Shown here: piece by piece, positions 31 to 23,708 of the stretch | Position numbering within the stretch: position 1 is the stretch's first letter | Layout: each line of letters begins with the position of its first letter | Source of the DNA: a virus | Lineage: Duplodnaviria > Caudoviricetes | DNA: 28,978 nucleotides | Virus record (IMG/VR): IMGVR_UViG_3300033076_000383 | Location: 1-28,978 of that record | Direction: 5' to 3' (one strand) | The notes under the pieces: model-generated | What the model saw: only the letters and a program-made list of their open reading frames with translations | What the model was told of the DNA's origin: nothing | The model's database searches: none | Translations under genes and position numbers: made by a program

Positions 31-189
31 TTAATACGGTCTCCAGACCAGCACGTCCATTGCTATGACCAGCACGCAGACTGCGTACATGGCCAACACT
101 GCGTAGTCCATCGCGTCGAACCTTCGGGCTGTGGGGATTGGTTTGGCCGGCCCCCGATAAGAAGATTGATGACTGTTCCTTTTACTCAT
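31..189 (-). CDS. Small single-TM membrane protein (~52 aa)
   Basis: Start moved to ATG 189 because of AAGGAG just upstream; basic N-terminus then hydrophobic YAVLAMYAVCVLVIAM. Confidence 0.7.
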   Translation of the reverse strand: MSKRNSHQSSYRGPAKPIPTARRFDAMDYAVLAMYAVCVLVIAMDVLVWRPY

Positions 190-502
190 GGCTGCTCTCC
201 TTTCTGTTTTGCCATAGCCACTCAATGATGGTCATACCTTCGCGCAGCGTGTGTACTTGTTGGTAGTCATCGTAAGCGTGCGCCGTGTTGAGACCCGTGC
301 CGTACACGTAGTACGTGACCTGCTCTTCCATCTGCGTATGTGTTCGTGTCGTAATTCGCTGCTCAACAAAGCCAAACGATATGGCTACATCCTCCATGAG
401 ATGTATGCGTACTAGCTGGTCACACTTTTTCTCGCGTGCGGTATTTGGGTCTAACACAAACACACGCCACTGCCCTGTCCATTCATCCTTTGTCGAAGTC
501 AT
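182..502 (-). CDS. Hypothetical early protein (~106 aa)
   Basis: ATG 502 preceded by AAGGAG; overlaps both neighbours. Confidence 0.65.
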   Translation of the reverse strand: MTSTKDEWTGQWRVFVLDPNTAREKKCDQLVRIHLMEDVAISFGFVEQRITTRTHTQMEEQVTYYVYGTGLNTAHAYDDYQQVHTLREGMTIIEWLWQNRKESSHE

Positions 503-956
503 GTTGCTCTCCTTTCTCTCTGCGTTTGAAGTCATGCGCGGCTTGCTCTAACACGTTGGTGACGTACTCAATCGTGCGGTACGTATCGAAGCGTTGGCTC
601 AGGCCGCCTATCCCAAGCGATGCAAGCTGCGCAGCGTGGCCCGGTGCGTAGTCACCGCTGTGGTGGCAATCGAAGCCGAACACTGTGTATTTGCCACCAT
701 CCTCGTCGCCTCTTGTCGCTGCGTACGTCCACCCACCATGCGAGTGAGGCGCGTCTTCGTAGAAGGCTCCGTTGTTGTACCCATGCAAGTCGTTGTAGTC
801 CTTGCCGTAGTCTGGGTGGCCGAAGGGTATGAAGATGTACCCGTTGAGATGCTTGCTGTCCGGATGGCGCTTGATCTCACAGATATACCCTGCGTCACTC
901 ATGAACATGAGATGATCGGGCTCGTTCTCCCATGGTTTGTCTGCGATGTTTGTCAT
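483..956 (-). CDS. Conserved phage hypothetical protein (HLNGY...HGGWTY...GFDCHH type)
   Basis: Motifs recalled from a widespread phage protein family; start overlaps the upstream stop. Confidence 0.8.
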   Translation of the reverse strand: MTNIADKPWENEPDHLMFMSDAGYICEIKRHPDSKHLNGYIFIPFGHPDYGKDYNDLHGYNNGAFYEDAPHSHGGWTYAATRGDEDGGKYTVFGFDCHHSGDYAPGHAAQLASLGIGGLSQRFDTYRTIEYVTNVLEQAAHDFKRREKGEQHDFDKG

Positions 957-1261
957 ATCAGTTCCTCCGGTATCTCAACTTCATCGCCCAGCTTGCTGGC
1001 AACGTAGCAGCGCATGGCTGCGATGAGTGGGGTGTCTCCGAGTTCTCGATGCGCTGGTGTGTGGTTTACCCACACGAAGGCTATAGGCTGCTTATCTGTG
1101 CCTGCGTGCATCCGTAGGTTGATACCCTCACGCTCAATGATCGGCCCGCCTTGTGCCCAGTCGATTGAGTAAGGCTTGACCTCAAAGTCAGCACCGGCCC
1201 AATTCTCAGCCATCGCCACTGCCCAATCAAGGGCAGCGCCTGTCAGTTCACTTGTCTTCAT
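953..1261 (-). CDS. NinX/DUF2591-like phage protein
   Basis: ELTGAALDWAVA, PYSIDWAQGGPIIERE and TPLIAAMRCYVASKLG motifs; strong AAGGAG RBS. Confidence 0.8.
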   Translation of the reverse strand: MKTSELTGAALDWAVAMAENWAGADFEVKPYSIDWAQGGPIIEREGINLRMHAGTDKQPIAFVWVNHTPAHRELGDTPLIAAMRCYVASKLGDEVEIPEELI

Positions 1262-1273
1262 GGTTGTTTCTCC

Positions 1274-1738
1274 TTACACAGTGATCTCAATACTGGCACC
1301 CGACAGCGCTTGGTTGATGCGGTCGTCGAGTATCTCGTCGAGCACATCGCTGACCTTCTCACTCAACTGGCGCTCAGTGATGAACTCATGGCTGCCCTGT
1401 CTGACGAAGTGCTCAAGGTGGTGGTCGACCTCGTTCTCAATGTCTTCGTCCGATGGGTGTGCGTAATCGCTCTCGTGTTCCTCGATTGCGTCCTTGACCA
1501 TGGCCTCGATCTTGTCCGCAAGCGCATCGTCGAGCAGCGTCAGCGCCTGTCTGTTCTGCATCATGGCGTGGAACTTGGTCTCCACCAGCATGTCGATGTG
1601 CTTCTCGAATGTTGCGAGCAACATGTTGATCAGTGGTAAGGCTACGTGGTGTTCGTGTTCTTGCTCTGGTGTTGTGTCCTCCATCGTTATGGGCATAGCC
1701 ATACTTGGCGTTGCGTTTTCATTCAGGTTTTCATTCAT
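1274..1738 (-). CDS. Acidic helical hypothetical protein (~154 aa)
   Basis: ATG 1738 with AAGGAGAA RBS at 1745-1752; Asp/Glu/His rich. Confidence 0.75.
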   Translation of the reverse strand: MNENLNENATPSMAMPITMEDTTPEQEHEHHVALPLINMLLATFEKHIDMLVETKFHAMMQNRQALTLLDDALADKIEAMVKDAIEEHESDYAHPSDEDIENEVDHHLEHFVRQGSHEFITERQLSEKVSDVLDEILDDRINQALSGASIEITV

Positions 1739-1764
1739 GGTTGCTTCTCCTTTTGGTTGATGTG

Positions 1765-2963: not shown

Positions 2964-3240
2964 CCCGCATGGTTGCAGGGTTGTCGAAGTTATTGCGTTA
3001 ATTAGGGTGTGTTTTTCCCAGAACTAATACGTAGGGTACGGGTTCTACTTCTTTAAGCCATGAAAAACAGAAGAACAAGGTAACTTAAAGAAGTAAAACC
3101 CCTCCCATATATATAAGTTATTTATTTATATAGATATATATATAGTAGTAAGTGGTGGGTGTGGCTCAACCATGCGGGTTAGAGGCCCACGCTTGGTGCT
3201 GGACTTGGTGGGATTTTGCTGGGTGCTAGTGGGTATGCGT
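2964..3240. other. AT-rich non-coding region with nested inverted repeats; candidate replication origin
   Basis: 12-bp IR 2964-2975/3167-3178; 17/18 IR 3040-3057/3084-3101; (AT)n tract about 3107-3144. Confidence 0.45.
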
Positions 3241-4148: not shown

Positions 4149-4359
4149 CAACACGTTTTAGAGACATATTGACAGGGGGTATTTTTTGCCCTGCGGCGAC
4201 CCCACCGTACGGGGGGAACCCCTTTTTCGATGCGGCGGTGCGACTTGGCATAAACACTGTTCCGCACCGATTCCCAGCAAAATGTAAAACGTTTGTCAAT
4301 TAAATACCCCTCGTTAAGGCCAACACCGGTTTGCGTTTAAGCACCCAACCTCCAAAAAT

Positions 4360-4389
4360 TTTATAAAAAATTATTAAAAACTGTGTCAA
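4360..4389 (-). promoter_or_regulatory. Possible sigma70 promoter (TTGACA-N18-TATAAA)
   Basis: -35 at 4384-4389 and -10 at 4360-4365; AT-rich context raises the chance of a spurious match. Confidence 0.4.
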
Positions 4390-4398
4390 ACGTACAAC

Positions 4399-4430
4399 AA
4401 AAAACCCCCGGCACCTTTCGACACCGGGGG
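4399..4430 (-). terminator. Rho-independent terminator
   Basis: CCCCCGGUGUC-GAAA-GGUGCCGGGGG-UUUUUU; the G-U pairs work only on the minus strand. Confidence 0.85.
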
Positions 4431-4484
4431 GAACCTTTCAAGGAGAACTTGCATGAAACAGACCACGGCTTGCGCAGCGGTCAG
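4399..4484 (-). ncRNA. Predicted ~85-nt small RNA with anti-Shine-Dalgarno/anti-AUG segment
   Basis: Own promoter, 5' GCAA hairpin (4461-4482), unpaired UUUCAUGCAAGUUCUCCUUGA, 3' terminator. Confidence 0.6.
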
Positions 4485-4499
4485 AAAGTAGTGTACATT
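4470..4499 (+). promoter_or_regulatory. Possible promoter of the packaging/structural operon (TTGCGC-N18-TACATT)
   Basis: About 30 nt upstream of the TerS ATG; shares its -10 palindrome with the opposite promoter. Confidence 0.45.
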
Positions 4500-4518
4500 T
4501 CAGCCATCGAGGTTACAA
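4490..4518 (-). promoter_or_regulatory. Sigma70-like promoter (TTGTAA-N17-TACACT) for the small RNA
   Basis: -35 at 4513-4518, -10 at 4490-4495, 17-nt spacer; predicted +1 falls at the first hairpin. Confidence 0.6.
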
Positions 4519-4530
4519 GGCCTTCGCGCA

Positions 4531-5133
4531 ATGTTTGAGAATTTGGTGCAATTCAACCCGGAACCAACGCCGCCCGGACCCATGACCACGCTTGAGAAAG
4601 CGGGGGTCGATGAAGTCTTGGCCGCGCAGACAGCCACATCGAGCTGGCTGGAGGAACTTGGGGCACCACCAGACGACGAAGTCTTGGCCGATCTGGAGAA
4701 GGCGGACGCCCGAAAAGCATTTGGGGCGCTGACCGCCACCACAGATACCTCCGAGCAAAAGGCCGCCTTGGTACAGCTCAAGACCCCGGAAGCTGTCAGG
4801 CACCTGACAGGTATGCTCAGCGCCTACGATTGGGAGTTCATTGAGCAGGCCAAGGAGCTTCGTGGCTACACAGTGGCCAAGCTGGTGGAGGAGACAACAC
4901 ATACAAACCCCAACATCAGACTCAAGGCGCTGGCCCTACTGGGCAAAGTCACCGAGGTGGGCCTGTTCACCGAAAAGATCGAGATCAAGAAGGAAGAGCT
5001 GTCCGACAACGAGCTCGACCAACGCATCAAGGACAAGCTCAACAAGTTCATGGGCGTGGTCGACGTCATCGACGTGTACGAAGACGCTGAAAAGACCGGC
5101 GCTCTGGGCCTCCCCCGGGAAGACGCCGAGTGA
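4531..5133 (+). CDS. terS: Probable terminase small subunit
   Basis: Directly upstream of and overlapping TerL (GTGA); RLKALALLGK...GLFTEK...ELSDNEL C-terminal pattern. Confidence 0.65.
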   Translation: MFENLVQFNPEPTPPGPMTTLEKAGVDEVLAAQTATSSWLEELGAPPDDEVLADLEKADARKAFGALTATTDTSEQKAALVQLKTPEAVRHLTGMLSAYDWEFIEQAKELRGYTVAKLVEETTHTNPNIRLKALALLGKVTEVGLFTEKIEIKKEELSDNELDQRIKDKLNKFMGVVDVIDVYEDAEKTGALGLPREDAE

Positions 5134-17376: not shown

Positions 17377-20300
17377 ATGGCCCTCGTTCTGCAGGATCGC
17401 GTAAGGGAACAGGCGTCTACAACTGGTACAGGAACTTTCACACTGTCCGGTGCGTATGACGGATACCGCACGTTTGCTTCGTGCGTACCTGATGGCTCTG
17501 TTGTTTACTACTGTATCCATAATACGGCTGCAGGATTTCAGACCGAGTGGGAGGTAGGCTACGGCACGTACAGCGCAAACACACTAGTGCGAACTAGTGT
17601 CTATTCCTCTTCCAACAGTGACGCAGCGGTTAATTTCAGCGCAGGCACAAAGGAAGTGTTCATTACACAGCCTGCAGAACAAGCGATTTACCAAGAAGTC
17701 AACGGCAGTCTGCGGCTTGTTGGCGGAACCATCGGTCTTACGCAAGACGGTACTGAGGGCACAACGTTGCCCAACACGTCTTTCCAAGCGTTTACGACCG
17801 GCAACTACTACATGCAGGCCAACCAGCAGAACCTATCAAACGGTTCTTCTGCGTCGTCTGACTGGGTCTCTACTGCCGACAATGGCTCCGACACCGAAAA
17901 CTACATGGACATGGGCATGGCCAGCAGCACGTACAGTGCCGCCGACTACTCTGCTCAAAAACCAAACAGCGGATACCTGATCTCCACAGGTAATGACCTG
18001 CGCATCATCGCGGGTAAATACGGCGCAACATCTCCCGGCCCGCAAGACATTGTTTTGATTGCTGGCTCTCTGCTGGACACGGAAGAGCGGGCGCGTGTTT
18101 ACGGCGACACCGGTAACGTCAATATCGGCGGTGGTGTTAATGCGACTGACACCGGCGAGTTGTTACAAGTAGAAGGTAGCACACGTATTGCTGGCGCAGC
18201 CACTTTTGGCAGCACGGTTACGCTGAACGCCAACCCAACGCTGGATATGCAGGCCGCTACCAAACAGTACGTGGATAACGCGGCTTCGGCAGGCCTTACG
18301 GTGCACACCCCGGTTCGCACAGAGGCTGTCGGCAATCTGAACGCTACATACAATAACGGAACAGCTGGGGTCGGTGCGACACTGACCAACGCCGGAACGC
18401 AAGCCGCACTGGTTTGCGACGGCATTACGGTTAACGTTAATGACCGCATTTTGGTGATGGATCAGACCGACCAGACCCAGAACGGTGTGTACGTTGTGAC
18501 AAATACGGGTTCAGGCTCCACAAACTGGGTGTTGACTCGTGCGTCGGATGCCGACACATACGGTATCAATGACCCGAATGCGCTCGACGACGGCGCATAT
18601 TTCTTCGTGTCTGAGGGAACAACCGCCGCGTACGAGTCGTATGTCTGCACGACGGTTGGAATAATTACGTTCGGTACTACGGCAATCACGTTCCAGCAGT
18701 TCAGCTCTGTACCTTCGTACGTTGTCAACGCTCCCCTACAGTTATCCGGCAATGTATTGTCTTTGTCTGGTACCGTAGCAGCAACCAACGGCGGTACTGG
18801 CACGAGCACTGTTACTACTGGCGATCTGCTGTATGGATCGGCCACGAACACATGGTCAAATCTGGCCAAAGGCTCGGCCTACAAGTCGCTTGTCATGAAC
18901 GCCGGCGGCACAAACGTCGAGTGGAACGCTGTTGCCCTGAATCAGTCGGGTGCTGTTTCTGGCGCTCTTCCGGCAACAAACGGCGGCACCGGCCAATCTA
19001 GTTACACGCTGGGCGATACGCTGTACTCTAGCGCCTCCAACACGCTGAGCAAGCTGTCTGGCAACACCACCACAACCAAGAAGTATCTGCAACAACAAGG
19101 CGATGGCACCAACTCCGCTGCACCGTCTTGGCAACAGATTGCCGCTGCTGACATCTCTGGTCTGGCGGCTTCGGCCACCACGGACACCACCAACGCATCC
19201 AACATCAGTTCGGGCACGCTGCCTTCTGGTCGTTTGTCTGGCGCTTACACAGGCGTTACGGGTGTCGGCACTCTGACAGCAGGTACTTGGACGGCTTCCA
19301 CGGTTGGTGTTGGCTACGGCGGTACTGGCCTGACAAGCTACACGACTGGCGACATTGTTTACGCTTCGGCTTCTGGAACTCTGGCCAGCTTGGCTGATGT
19401 GGCCACCGGCAATGCACTGATCTCCGGCGGTGTGGGCGTGGCTCCTAGCTACGGCAAGATCGGTCTGACGACCCACATCTCTGGCACCTTGGCCGTGGCC
19501 AACGGCGGTACTGGCGCGACATCCCTGACTGGTTACGTGTACGGCAACGGCACAAGCGCCATGACGGCTTCGACCACGATCCCCGGCTCGGCCATCTCCG
19601 GCAACATTTCTGGCAATGCAGCCTACGCTACGTCTGCAGGGTCTGTGACGTACTCCCTGACTCCGGGCTCTTACCTGACAGGCAGTGCGTACAACGGTGG
19701 TGCAGCTCAGACTTTTGCGGTAGATGCGACCTCGGCCAACACAGCTTCTAAGGTTGTAGCCCGTGACGCGTCTGGCAACTTCTCTGCCGGTACTATCACC
19801 GCTACGCTGTCGGGCAATGTCACAGGTAACGTGACAGGTAACGTGTCGGGGTCTTCCGGCTCTTGCACAGGAAATGCGGCTACCGCAACTACCGCATCTT
19901 CATGCTCAGGTAACGCCGCCACAGCTACGCTGGCAACCAAGGCTTCAACGCTTTCACAAGGCGGCGGTTCAGGTACGGGGATGACTTTTAACTGGTCAGG
20001 CCAGTCTGGTCAGCCGACATGGTTGTGGGGCTCAAATGATGGCACCAACATCTATGTGTGGAACCCATCCAACTTCAGTGTCAACTACGCAACGACTGCA
20101 GGAAGTGCTTCATCGGCAAGCTCCGCGTCTACTTCGTCGCAAGTAACGATCAACTATAACAATGATTCCAACAGCACGTATCAGATGCTGTGGGGGTCTG
20201 GTAACTCTGTGTATGGAACTGGCGGTATCTACTGCAACCCGTACACAGACTACCTGTACTCTGGATCGTTCTACTGCGGTAATTGGTTCCGATCCTCCGG

Positions 20301-20778
20301 CGCTACTGGGTGGTATAACGACTCGTACGGCGGCGGCATAAATATGGCCGACACTACATGGGTTCGTACCTACGGTAGTAAATCTTTCTACTGCGACCAG
20401 TCTATCGCCGCTGCGGGCAACGTAACAGCCTACTACTCTGACATGCGCCTCAAGACTAAGGTTGGAGGCATTGAGAATGCGCTCGACAAGGTCGACTCGC
20501 TGGAAGGCTTCTACTACGTCGAAAACGAGCTGGCCAAGTCCTTCGGCTACAAGAACGATAAGCAGCAGGTAGCGCTGTCCGCGCAGGCTGTAAAAGCGGT
20601 CATGCCGGAAGCAGTTTCGCTGGCCGCGTTCGACATGGAGACCCATGAGACCACCGGCGAGATTACATCAAAGTCTGGTGAGGAGTATTTGACCGTTGAC
20701 TACGCCCGCCTTGTTCCCTTGCTTGTTGAGGCTATCAAGGAACTCCGCGCTGAGGTCAAAGCACTGAAAGGTGATTGA
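17377..20778 (+). CDS. Long tail fibre with C-terminal intramolecular chaperone (peptidase S74)
   Basis: G/S/T-rich, NGGTG repeats, AATKQYVD, QNGVY; C-terminal YSDMRLK...VDYARLVPLLVEAIKEL. Confidence 0.9.
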   Translation: MALVLQDRVREQASTTGTGTFTLSGAYDGYRTFASCVPDGSVVYYCIHNTAAGFQTEWEVGYGTYSANTLVRTSVYSSSNSDAAVNFSAGTKEVFITQPAEQAIYQEVNGSLRLVGGTIGLTQDGTEGTTLPNTSFQAFTTGNYYMQANQQNLSNGSSASSDWVSTADNGSDTENYMDMGMASSTYSAADYSAQKPNSGYLISTGNDLRIIAGKYGATSPGPQDIVLIAGSLLDTEERARVYGDTGNVNIGGGVNATDTGELLQVEGSTRIAGAATFGSTVTLNANPTLDMQAATKQYVDNAASAGLTVHTPVRTEAVGNLNATYNNGTAGVGATLTNAGTQAALVCDGITVNVNDRILVMDQTDQTQNGVYVVTNTGSGSTNWVLTRASDADTYGINDPNALDDGAYFFVSEGTTAAYESYVCTTVGIITFGTTAITFQQFSSVPSYVVNAPLQLSGNVLSLSGTVAATNGGTGTSTVTTGDLLYGSATNTWSNLAKGSAYKSLVMNAGGTNVEWNAVALNQSGAVSGALPATNGGTGQSSYTLGDTLYSSASNTLSKLSGNTTTTKKYLQQQGDGTNSAAPSWQQIAAADISGLAASATTDTTNASNISSGTLPSGRLSGAYTGVTGVGTLTAGTWTASTVGVGYGGTGLTSYTTGDIVYASASGTLASLADVATGNALISGGVGVAPSYGKIGLTTHISGTLAVANGGTGATSLTGYVYGNGTSAMTASTTIPGSAISGNISGNAAYATSAGSVTYSLTPGSYLTGSAYNGGAAQTFAVDATSANTASKVVARDASGNFSAGTITATLSGNVTGNVTGNVSGSSGSCTGNAATATTASSCSGNAATATLATKASTLSQGGGSGTGMTFNWSGQSGQPTWLWGSNDGTNIYVWNPSNFSVNYATTAGSASSASSASTSSQVTINYNNDSNSTYQMLWGSGNSVYGTGGIYCNPYTDYLYSGSFYCGNWFRSSGATGWYNDSYGGGINMADTTWVRTYGSKSFYCDQSIAAAGNVTAYYSDMRLKTKVGGIENALDKVDSLEGFYYVENELAKSFGYKNDKQQVALSAQAVKAVMPEAVSLAAFDMETHETTGEITSKSGEEYLTVDYARLVPLLVEAIKELRAEVKALKGD

Positions 20779-21818: not shown

Positions 21819-22877
21819 ATGTCTTCGTACTCACCAAATTTACGAATTGAGCTGATCACGACCGGCGACCAAGTCGGTACGTGGGGCGCGACTACGAACA
21901 CCAACCTCGGCACCTTGCTGGAAGACGCTATTGCCGGATATACCTCCGTGTCTGTGACGACTGCCAATCAAGCGCTGACCGCCAACAACGGGTCTGCAGA
22001 CCAATCGCGTAATGTGTCGCTGGCGTTGACGACGACCACAACAGCGAATTTTGCTGTGTACGCCCCTCCGGCTGAGAAGACCTACGTCATCTACAACGCC
22101 AGCAGCTACACCGCCACGATCTACAACTCCACGGTTCTGGGTAACACCACTGCTGCCGGTGTTGGCGCGGCTATCCCTGCTGGTAAAACTGCAACGGTTT
22201 GGTCTGACGGCACCAACTTCCGCTTCCAAAACAACCACTTGTCGAGCCTTACGCTGGCCACAGATTTGGCTGTTGCTGACGGCGGTACCGGTGCGTCAAC
22301 TGCTGCGGATGCCAGAACGAACCTTGGGCTTGGCACAATGGCCACGCAGGCCTCGTCTTCGGTTTCTATCACCGGTGGCTCGATCACAGGCATCACCGAC
22401 TTGGCTGTAGCCGATGGCGGGACTGGGGCTTCTACGGCAGCCGACGCTCGCACAAACCTCGGGCTTGGAACAATCGCCACGCAGAACAGCAATGCGGTAA
22501 GTATCACCGGCGGCTCAATCACAGGTATCACAGATTTGGCCGTTGCTGATGGCGGTACAGGCGCTTCCAGCTTTACGTCTGGCGGTATTTTGCGTGGCAA
22601 CGGCTCGGCAGCACTGAGCATAGCTTCTGCCGCAGACATTGTGGCAGCTATCGGCAGCACATATGTAGCAAATGCAACGTACGCTACAAGTGCTACAAGT
22701 GCTACAACGGCAACGAACGCAACGAACGCAACGAACGCAACGAACGCTACTACTGCAGGCAAACTTGGAACAACAAACTGGACAATACAAGAGTCTGGGG
22801 GCGTGCTTGTTTTTCAGTATGGTGGCGTAACAAAATTCACAATGTCTTCTGACGGCACGTTTGCTGCTGCAGTTTAA
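21819..22877 (+). CDS. Tail fibre-like protein
   Basis: GTWGATTNTN N-terminus; three TDLAVADGGTGAS repeats; ATN tract. Confidence 0.8.
   Translation: MSSYSPNLRIELITTGDQVGTWGATTNTNLGTLLEDAIAGYTSVSVTTANQALTANNGSADQSRNVSLALTTTTTANFAVYAPPAEKTYVIYNASSYTATIYNSTVLGNTTAAGVGAAIPAGKTATVWSDGTNFRFQNNHLSSLTLATDLAVADGGTGASTAADARTNLGLGTMATQASSSVSITGGSITGITDLAVADGGTGASTAADARTNLGLGTIATQNSNAVSITGGSITGITDLAVADGGTGASSFTSGGILRGNGSAALSIASAADIVAAIGSTYVANATYATSATSATTATNATNATNATNATTAGKLGTTNWTIQESGGVLVFQYGGVTKFTMSSDGTFAAAV
22260..22570 (+). repeat. 135-bp (45-aa) intragenic tandem repeat, ~2.3 copies
   Basis: Units start at 22260, 22395 and 22530. Confidence 0.85.
22683..22747 (+). repeat. 9-bp tandem repeats: GCTACAAGT x2 plus one variant, then GCAACGAAC x4
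   Basis: Read directly from the sequence; encodes ATS/ATN units. Confidence 0.9.
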
Positions 22878-23279: not shown

Positions 23280-23297
23280 ATCAAGGAGAACAACCAA

Positions 23298-23708
23298 ATG
23301 AACAAGGTAATTATCTTCACAAACGACAATGGTGGTGTATCCATCTGCATCCCCACTGGTGAGCTGCCTATTGAGGAAGTTCAGGCCAAAGACATTCCAG
23401 CGGGGGTTCAATCCTATGTCGTTGACATGGCATCTTTGCCTGAAGAAGACAATGACTTCTTTGGCGCTTGGGAGCAAACCAAAGGCGTGGTGACCGTCAA
23501 CGTGGACAAGGCCCGAGAGATCACCAAAACCCATCTGCGTCGTGAGCGTGAGCCTTTGTTGGCTGCTCAGGATGTCTTGTTCCAACGTGCTCAAGAGACT
23601 GGTGCTGACACCACTGCAATCGTGGCTGAAAAAAACCGCCTGCGTAATATCACGGCCTTGGCTGATGCTGAGAATACGCTGGATGGACTTCGTGCTTTGT
23701 CATGCTGA
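23298..23708 (+). CDS. Probable tail fibre assembly chaperone
   Basis: Follows the fibre gene; AKDIP..., R..REPLL...D...EK.RLR.IT motifs. Confidence 0.65.
   Translation: MNKVIIFTNDNGGVSICIPTGELPIEEVQAKDIPAGVQSYVVDMASLPEEDNDFFGAWEQTKGVVTVNVDKAREITKTHLRREREPLLAAQDVLFQRAQETGADTTAIVAEKNRLRNITALADAENTLDGLRALSC

Follow-up and report, generated by a model that had tools for sequence, protein, structure and literature searches.

A putative trans-acting antisense RNA encoded beside the packaging genes of a phage family and predicted to act on early-strand start regions

Overview

The 29-kb virus record analysed here (28,978 nucleotides, taken whole and called the window) carries on its minus strand what its sequence and those of its relatives indicate to be a conserved, structured and widespread phage RNA gene with covarying stems. 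Its predicted product, of approximately 85 nt, is probably a trans-acting antisense RNA that blocks translation initiation on early-strand messages, above all on the message of the gene that heads the replication operon. The start of this gene, c22 (DUF7307-like), lies outside the window and is the best-supported of the predicted targets. An earlier note, made from the window alone, had proposed a trans-acting anti-Shine-Dalgarno (SD)/anti-AUG RNA directed against the phage's own early-strand genes, and the comparative evidence (a conserved seed, a bias in SD context and co-variation between RNA and target) supports this proposal. Regarding the identity of the targets, the note was right in placing them among the phage's own early-strand genes, but those that co-evolve with the RNA are middle genes of the replication module, c22, c20 and c17.

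Anatomy of the element

In the window, a small group of early minus-strand genes is followed by a 200-aa gene, terL, portal, GroES and capsid. The 200-aa gene has no PHROG or Pfam family. The cultured phages with related capsids are Pag-Yong1 and its relatives of identical length (70%), DSL-LC04 (64%) and HTVC023P/027P (61-62%). The promoter, hairpin, linker and terminator that the earlier note had described were all found in place (table 1), with a predicted transcription start (+1) at 4483. Within the antisense domain, the anti-AUG CAU occupies 4455-4453 and the anti-SD seed UCUCCUU occupies 4446-4440 of the minus strand. Family model R2 gives the window RNA a score of 44 bits, the window being part of its training set. 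A consensus scan called the terminator and missed the RNA promoter, which has 8 of the 12 consensus bases for a threshold of 9, so the support for the promoter comes from its conservation.

Table 1. Position of the element, of neighbouring features and of candidate target starts in the window
Feature	Position	Strand	Basis
RNA promoter TTGTAA-N17-TACACT, sigma-70-type	4490..4518; 4518-4513 (-35), 4495-4490 (-10)	-	sequence
Predicted 85-nt small RNA	4399..4483	-	fold and family model R2
Hairpin P1, GCAA loop	4461..4482	-	folding
Antisense domain (linker)	4432..4460	-	seed conservation, computed duplexes
Intrinsic terminator: 11-bp stem 4430-4405, GAAA loop, then U6	4399..4430	-	called by consensus scan
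12-codon ORF behind mirror-image RBS (strong SD, ATG at 4453)	4453..4491	+	without conservation
Candidate packaging-operon promoter TTGCGC-N18-TACATT	4470..4499	+	sequence, inferred
Palindrome TGTCWA-N4-TWGACA, two degenerate copies	4283-4298, 4384-4399		sequence
200-aa gene before terL, "terS" by position only	4531..5133	+	position
terL	5130-6662		matches phrog_38
Gene 23298 start, early-type AGGAGA	23283..23300	+	net -18.1 kcal/mol, rank 1/39
Gene 1261 start, candidate secondary target	1259..1275	-	net -17.9 kcal/mol, rank 2/39
Gene 1738 start, candidate secondary target	1736..1752	-	net -16.2 kcal/mol, rank 3/39
Gene 502 start, candidate secondary target	500..514	-	net -15.2 kcal/mol, rank 4/39
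Gene 189 start, candidate secondary target	187..202	-	net -14.6 kcal/mol, rank 6/39

The 86-nt stretch folds at -33.3 kcal/mol on the minus strand (z -2.61; six of 200 shuffles equal or better) and at -25.8 kcal/mol on the plus strand. The minus strand is also the more stable in 95 of the 98 family representatives. In the window RNA the linker is partly open, with UUCUC about 0.9-1.0 unpaired and the remainder mostly 0.2-0.8. The P1 hairpin of the window has a GCAA loop, but in relatives these four bases do not always form a tetraloop. Across the representatives it stands at a fixed distance from the promoter and is unpaired in just 44-51%, and the GNRA loop was dropped as an obligatory feature of the RNA.

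In the Rfam search, nothing in the window reached the gathering score of any family. Between 4000 and 4700 there were nine matches up to E=10, no C4 family among them, and the scores of NsiR1, anti-hemB and rli60 were weak and far under their gathering scores. ARAGORN found nothing.

Conservation and structure across the family

A total of 80 loci, with identities of 53-97%, were fetched via the 200-aa protein. Their upstream regions retain the promoter, the hairpin, the UCUCC linker and the terminator, and the element lies upstream of 48 of the 56 distinct putative terS proteins and is absent from eight. A pattern scan of the viral collection, in which the linker was required, provided 120 stretches and an estimate of approximately 390 matches to one strict pattern, which indicates that the RNA is common. 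The metagenome pattern scan was run without the linker requirement and also provided 120 stretches, two of them too near a contig end, corresponding to 115 distinct matches. Eighteen of these, without -35 and terminator, were counted as chance, and 97 were kept; the -35, which the pattern left unspecified, starts with TTG in 93 of the 115 (the 18 chance matches included in this total). Altogether, the 274 loci contained 184 distinct RNAs, from which 99 representatives (<86% identity) were taken, reduced to 98 when the chance match L241 was dropped.

The general form of the RNA consists of P1, seven unpaired bases, a variable hairpin P2 and the terminator; P2 is optional, and weak or absent in the lineage of the window. 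Pairing was evaluated both in an unfitted alignment, where 78.6% of cells pair and 133 two-sided changes are seen (73 in shuffles), and in a model-fitted alignment, where the values are 86.8% and 256 (97 in shuffles), with slid controls lower in both. Two-sided changes occur at six of the seven P1 pairs across the family, and the terminator cells are paired in 96% of the fitted family alignment and 82% of the unfitted one. An automatic RNAalifold model (R1), with just three pairs, was set aside. The stems upstream of terS in relatives covary and the UCUCCU linker is conserved, which is what the earlier note had proposed to test. The element has its own promoter and intrinsic terminator and no conserved ORF, and its conserved single-stranded seed is, by computation, complementary to distant mRNA starts, which are characteristics of a trans-encoded small RNA.

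The seed and its constraint

In the linker-free search the seed is UCUCC in 94 of the 97 kept matches and UCUCU in the other three, the value for random stretches being 8.4%. Among 35 distinct terS-derived RNAs, UCUCC is found in 31, UCUCU in three and UUUCC in one, and all the observed changes retain pairing with G. The 3' strand of P1 is made up, in 75 of the 98 representatives, of the bases that complement the spacer and AUG, leaving UCUCCUU alone exposed. This 3' strand keeps a constant UUGCU while its 5' partner exchanges A/G and C/U, which points to a second constraint on the 3' strand. In the lineage of the window the antisense extension is already outside P1. Two RNAs differ in build: L662 (genome G013) has two tandem anti-SD motifs, and L663 (G014) is divergent, lacks the CTCG promoter block, carries the seed ACUCCU and has eight bases paired across the c22 start codon.

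Predicted targets in the replication module

Targets were analysed in 12 near-complete genomes of relatives (G001-G012), with genes called by a simple custom script. The strongest conserved matches to the RNA are at three middle genes of the replication module: c17 (98 aa, following the conserved 656-aa gene c16, and weakly SprT/M78-like), c20 (approximately 112 aa, without an assigned family) and c22 (148 aa, DUF7307, similar to Pam3 gp33). The last has its own TTGCAA-type promoter and is the first gene of an operon that ends in a primase/helicase gene; DUF7307/c22 is carried by 33-38% of the members of the two nearest Atlas clusters. The predicted model of c22 (pLDDT 81) has a weak likeness to Gp157 and host-nuclease-inhibitor models, and searches of the PDB by sequence and by Foldseek gave no match.

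The ribosome-binding site of c22 changes together with the RNA in five lineages. The matched changes (RNA/c22 start) are UCUCCAUUG / CAAUGGAGA in G001, CUCCGUUGU / ACAACGGAG in G005, CUUCUCCUCUU / AAGAGGAGAAG in G007, UCCCCUUGGU / ACCAAGGGGA in G009 and UCCUUGUUG / CAACAAGGA in G013, the seed windows of the last two genomes having been set by hand. RNA and c22 start from the same genome pair at a mean of -19.0 kcal/mol, against -15.7 kcal/mol for foreign combinations (permutation p=0.0004, n=11, one genome per seed lineage; p=0.00005 for 17 distinct pairs), in a set of related genomes and for a gene selected after viewing 28 early clusters, partly in the same genomes. The same comparison gives p=0.04 (n=8) and 0.0009 (n=16) for c20, is not significant for c17 (p=0.38, n=11; p=0.10, n=19), and gives p=0.24 and 0.45 for c23, the neighbour of c22. 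In three genomes examined after the hypothesis had been formed, representing two distinct pairs, the c22 pairing is -22.5 to -24.7.

The site itself distinguishes c22 from its neighbour. In 80 loci near G006, GGAGAAG is present at 22 of 22 distinct c22 starts and at 0 of 22 c23 starts; the contrast is softer in a second clade set (12 of 24 and 6 of 32, respectively). When the full-length RNA is used and the opening cost included, the c22 start is among the best 3% of starts and that of c17 among the best 6% (medians of 11 genomes). Co-variation with the leftmost early genes was weak in the loci with 2.5-7 kb of early flank.

Candidate secondary targets in the window

The window contains none of c17, c20 and c22, so its own main target is not seen. 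A search for the c22 of this lineage found no long contig of the lineage, and when 120 loci were scanned for exact matches to the predicted site, no early gene of this family was recovered. Genes 189, 502, 1261 and 1738, which the earlier note had named as targets, are plausible secondary ones. The four start regions it quoted are present in the window, the duplex it described for gene 189 (9 bp + 3x3 loop + 6 bp) was reproduced by computation, and among the 39 window starts the early ones pair better than the late ones (p=0.0002). All four genes pair with the RNA, at ranks 2, 3, 4 and 6, but the late-strand gene 23298 ranks first, so the window data make them plausible and do not single them out. 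This late-strand gene (23283-23708), the best RNA match of all the window genes, adjoins tail-fibre-like genes. The tail-fibre-like protein encoded at 21819-22877 has a duplicated ITGITDLAVADGGTGAS block and ATN repeats, and 17377-20778 is another long fibre-like gene of low complexity.

Shine-Dalgarno context of early and late genes

In G001-G012, AGGAGA is found upstream of 158 of 578 early-strand genes and 16 of 535 late-strand genes. GGAG itself is used by 182 of the 535 late genes; the base that follows it is A at 219 of 348 early starts versus 38 of 181 late starts. An SD motif enriched in early genes and avoided in late ones is a feature of early mRNA inactivation of the RegB type, and the bias is also present in G004, which has no RNA (12 of 54 early, 2 of 42 late). 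In Pag-Yong1, with no detectable RNA, early and late genes differ in the same sense but less strongly (8 of 64 and 1 of 33, p=0.16). The SD bias alone is thus no proof of a role for the RNA.

Loss and change of the RNA

The RNA is dispensable in one clade. The eight terS proteins without the element (upstream regions L015, L017-L019, L021, L025, L026 and L030) group together with 100/99 support, which indicates one loss event and not eight, and in this clade the -10 has changed from TACACT to TACACC. The sister lineages L005, L006, L011, L014 and L016 have short and mutually divergent antisense extensions, which suggests decay or retargeting before the loss. In G004 the RNA is gone and the c22 site is kept, and a model search found no second copy of the RNA in this genome. 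In its sister G003, the changed RNA fits another gene best and c22 third. An early gene of G003 (76 aa, about 9.3 kb from the RNA) has the start CCUCGGAGAAA, an 11-base match to the changed seed, and may represent a target switch. Among the cultured relatives, the family model had no match at the equivalent position in Pag-Yong1 (both parts), in 18.6 of the 61.5 kb of DSL-LC04 or in 24.9 of the 60.9 kb of HTVC023P; Pag-Yong1 has one weak terminator-like match elsewhere (E=0.038).

The candidate opposite promoter and timing

The candidate plus-strand promoter and the RNA promoter have a common -10 region, and their predicted starts are 23 bp apart. The plus-strand -35 is absent from most members of the RNA-less clade. 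In bacterial bidirectional promoters, as far as the available part of the source goes, a start spacing of 23 bp is named as common (spacings of 10 and 18 bp being the others that mark such promoters), and activating one direction tends to repress the other (PMC12825309). The likeness would consist of the common -10 region and the 23-bp spacing, both predicted here from sequence. Given such antagonism, late co-expression of the RNA is not to be assumed; the RNA promoter has an ordinary sigma-70 appearance, of the same type as that of c22, and the RNA could equally build up from entry onwards, serving as a delayed brake. For the plus strand, a sigma-54-like reading was considered by eye and rejected, since neither the window nor many of the relatives have the -24 GG.

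Other elements of this region and of the early genes were also observed. A conserved CGAGG block lies between the boxes of the two promoters in the window (4505-4512, plus strand) and in relatives, too far from the terS ATG to be an SD, and is possibly an activator site. The 16-bp palindrome of table 1 (window and G001-G012) has three intergenic locations: one immediately beyond the RNA terminator, one ahead of the AAA-ATPase/VWA operon and, in relatives, one covering the start of the c22 promoter. It probably serves as an operator, and c24, which has weak HTH matches, is a candidate for the protein that binds it. An AT-rich stretch between early genes (3000-3180), with TA runs and short repeats, is possibly a replication origin.

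Proposed mechanism and alternatives

In the mechanism that we propose, the seed would pair with the AGGAGA Shine-Dalgarno and pairing would then spread over the spacer and AUG; in most relatives (the 75 of 98 mentioned above) the extension would sit in the wobble-rich P1 stem and be released as the mRNA displaces it. Repression would be strong for c22, c20 and c17 and weaker for other AGGAGA genes, with late genes mostly spared, and the likely role would be that of a brake on replication-phase genes in lytic growth. A bolder version is possible but somewhat doubtful: an RNA counterpart of T4 RegB would run the replication-to-packaging transition in a widespread lytic family, as a toehold/strand-displacement RNA that is encoded divergently from the packaging promoter, distinguishes messages by the base that follows GGAG, closes the first ribosome-binding site of the replication operon, and with it the operon, and spares the late genes.

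The same pairing could be directed at other messages. A real RNA that acts mainly on host AGGAGA mRNAs, freeing ribosomes for late phage genes, would suit the late genes, which use GGAG (182/535) but seldom with A next (38/181), and the phage small RNAs PreS and VpdS are known to act on host RNAs (PMC12197685, available part). We consider it unlikely, as the flanks of the seed vary together with a phage gene, and targets in the host would not call for this. Quite improbable in our judgement is an immunity or dormancy RNA like P1 c4 or P22 sar, in which the replication genes and a peptidase-type antirepressor would be kept off in a carrier state together with a palindrome-bound repressor. The weak SprT/M78 likeness of c17, the palindrome over the c22 promoter start, the weak HTH matches of c24 and the sigma-70-like promoter of the RNA are compatible with it. 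However, integrase, resolvase and ParA were found in none of the five complete genomes of relatives, which favours a lytic role over immunity; the 200-aa gene has no relative in GTDB contigs, and the single match to the element in the genome collection is a 4.9-kb contig in a lake MAG.

The complementarity could also be incidental, the element being a protein-binding RNA or an insulating promoter plus terminator, and the AGGAGAAG starts being kept for a RegA/RegB-like protein. G004 retains the sites without the RNA, T4 RegB recognises GGAG followed on the 3' side by a run rich in A (PMC3014915, available part) and GCAA never varies in its fixed position and plays no part in pairing, all of which would fit; no RegB-like family was found among 33 of the 48 early ORFs of G006 with PHROGs or 24 with Pfam, most of them having no family at all. 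We give this reading a low probability, because it leaves five lineage-specific compensatory changes, wobble-only seed variation and the covariation of P1 and P2 unexplained. The possibility of a functional 12-aa peptide, or of a leader, made from the plus strand, suggested by the strong SD and the ATG at 4453, is largely refuted and extremely improbable: 35 of the 98 representatives have no ATG, lengths vary from 8 to 84 codons in the other 63, and structure favours the minus strand in 95 of the 98. The earlier note would have given way to this peptide had the ORF alone been conserved and translated; it is the RNA that is conserved and the ORF that is not. A type I toxin-antitoxin system was also rejected, the opposite ORF being absent or random in length. 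Mimicry of the 16S 3' end was considered too, by eye. An antisense RNA acting on the phage's own early-strand genes is the reading that we consider probable.

Comparison with known systems

The c4 antisense RNA of P1/P7 (about 80 nt) is phage-encoded and acts in trans to block translation around a phage ribosome-binding site, and the short sar RNA of P22 prevents initiation on a phage message (PMC12197685, available part). The RNA described here is similar to c4 in size, in being phage-encoded and in its pairing in trans over a phage ribosome-binding site, which rests here on computation and co-variation. In contrast to c4, it has no Rfam match, has several predicted targets in the replication module rather than ant, and belongs to phages in which no lysogeny genes were found (five complete genomes); an antirepressor target in a temperate phage, as c4 has, was not recovered, the best target being DUF7307-like and c17 weakly peptidase-like. 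Unlike sar, which according to that part of the source has the one target ant in a temperate phage, it has a multi-target seed that would act 13-23 kb away. The small RNAs PreS (lambda), VpdS (VP882) and StxS are Hfq-dependent and act in trans (PMC12197685, available part). Small size, an own terminator and, by prediction, action in trans are common to these and to the RNA described here; they originate in temperate phages and have mostly host mRNAs as targets, whereas the phage considered here is probably lytic and the predicted targets are its own messages. The phage antisense RNAs characterised so far, in the same part of that source, act mainly in temperate phages, on lysogeny or on genes of the host (PMC12197685).

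T4 RegB inactivates early messages through a GGAG SD and its 3' context, and late messages escape (PMC3014915, available part). The likeness to RegB is a functional analogy, in the targeting of early SD contexts and the escape of late ones; RegB is a protein nuclease that, in the available text, needs S1, whereas here a base-pairing RNA is predicted and its best targets are middle genes. Our literature search, made on listings and the openings of abstracts, found no description of this RNA. It may be present, uncharacterised, among the 8,495 candidates that Fremin 2023 obtained from IMG/VR (PMC10690425, available part), and the terms "small RNA" and "noncoding" are absent from PMC9599517.

Significance

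The element is a candidate multi-target RNA that would regulate the gene programme of a probably lytic phage itself. It offers an explanation for the different Shine-Dalgarno contexts of early and late genes in these phages. The natural compensatory pairs of RNA and target are ready-made seed-swap experiments, and the RNA represents a compact natural design for a riboregulator.
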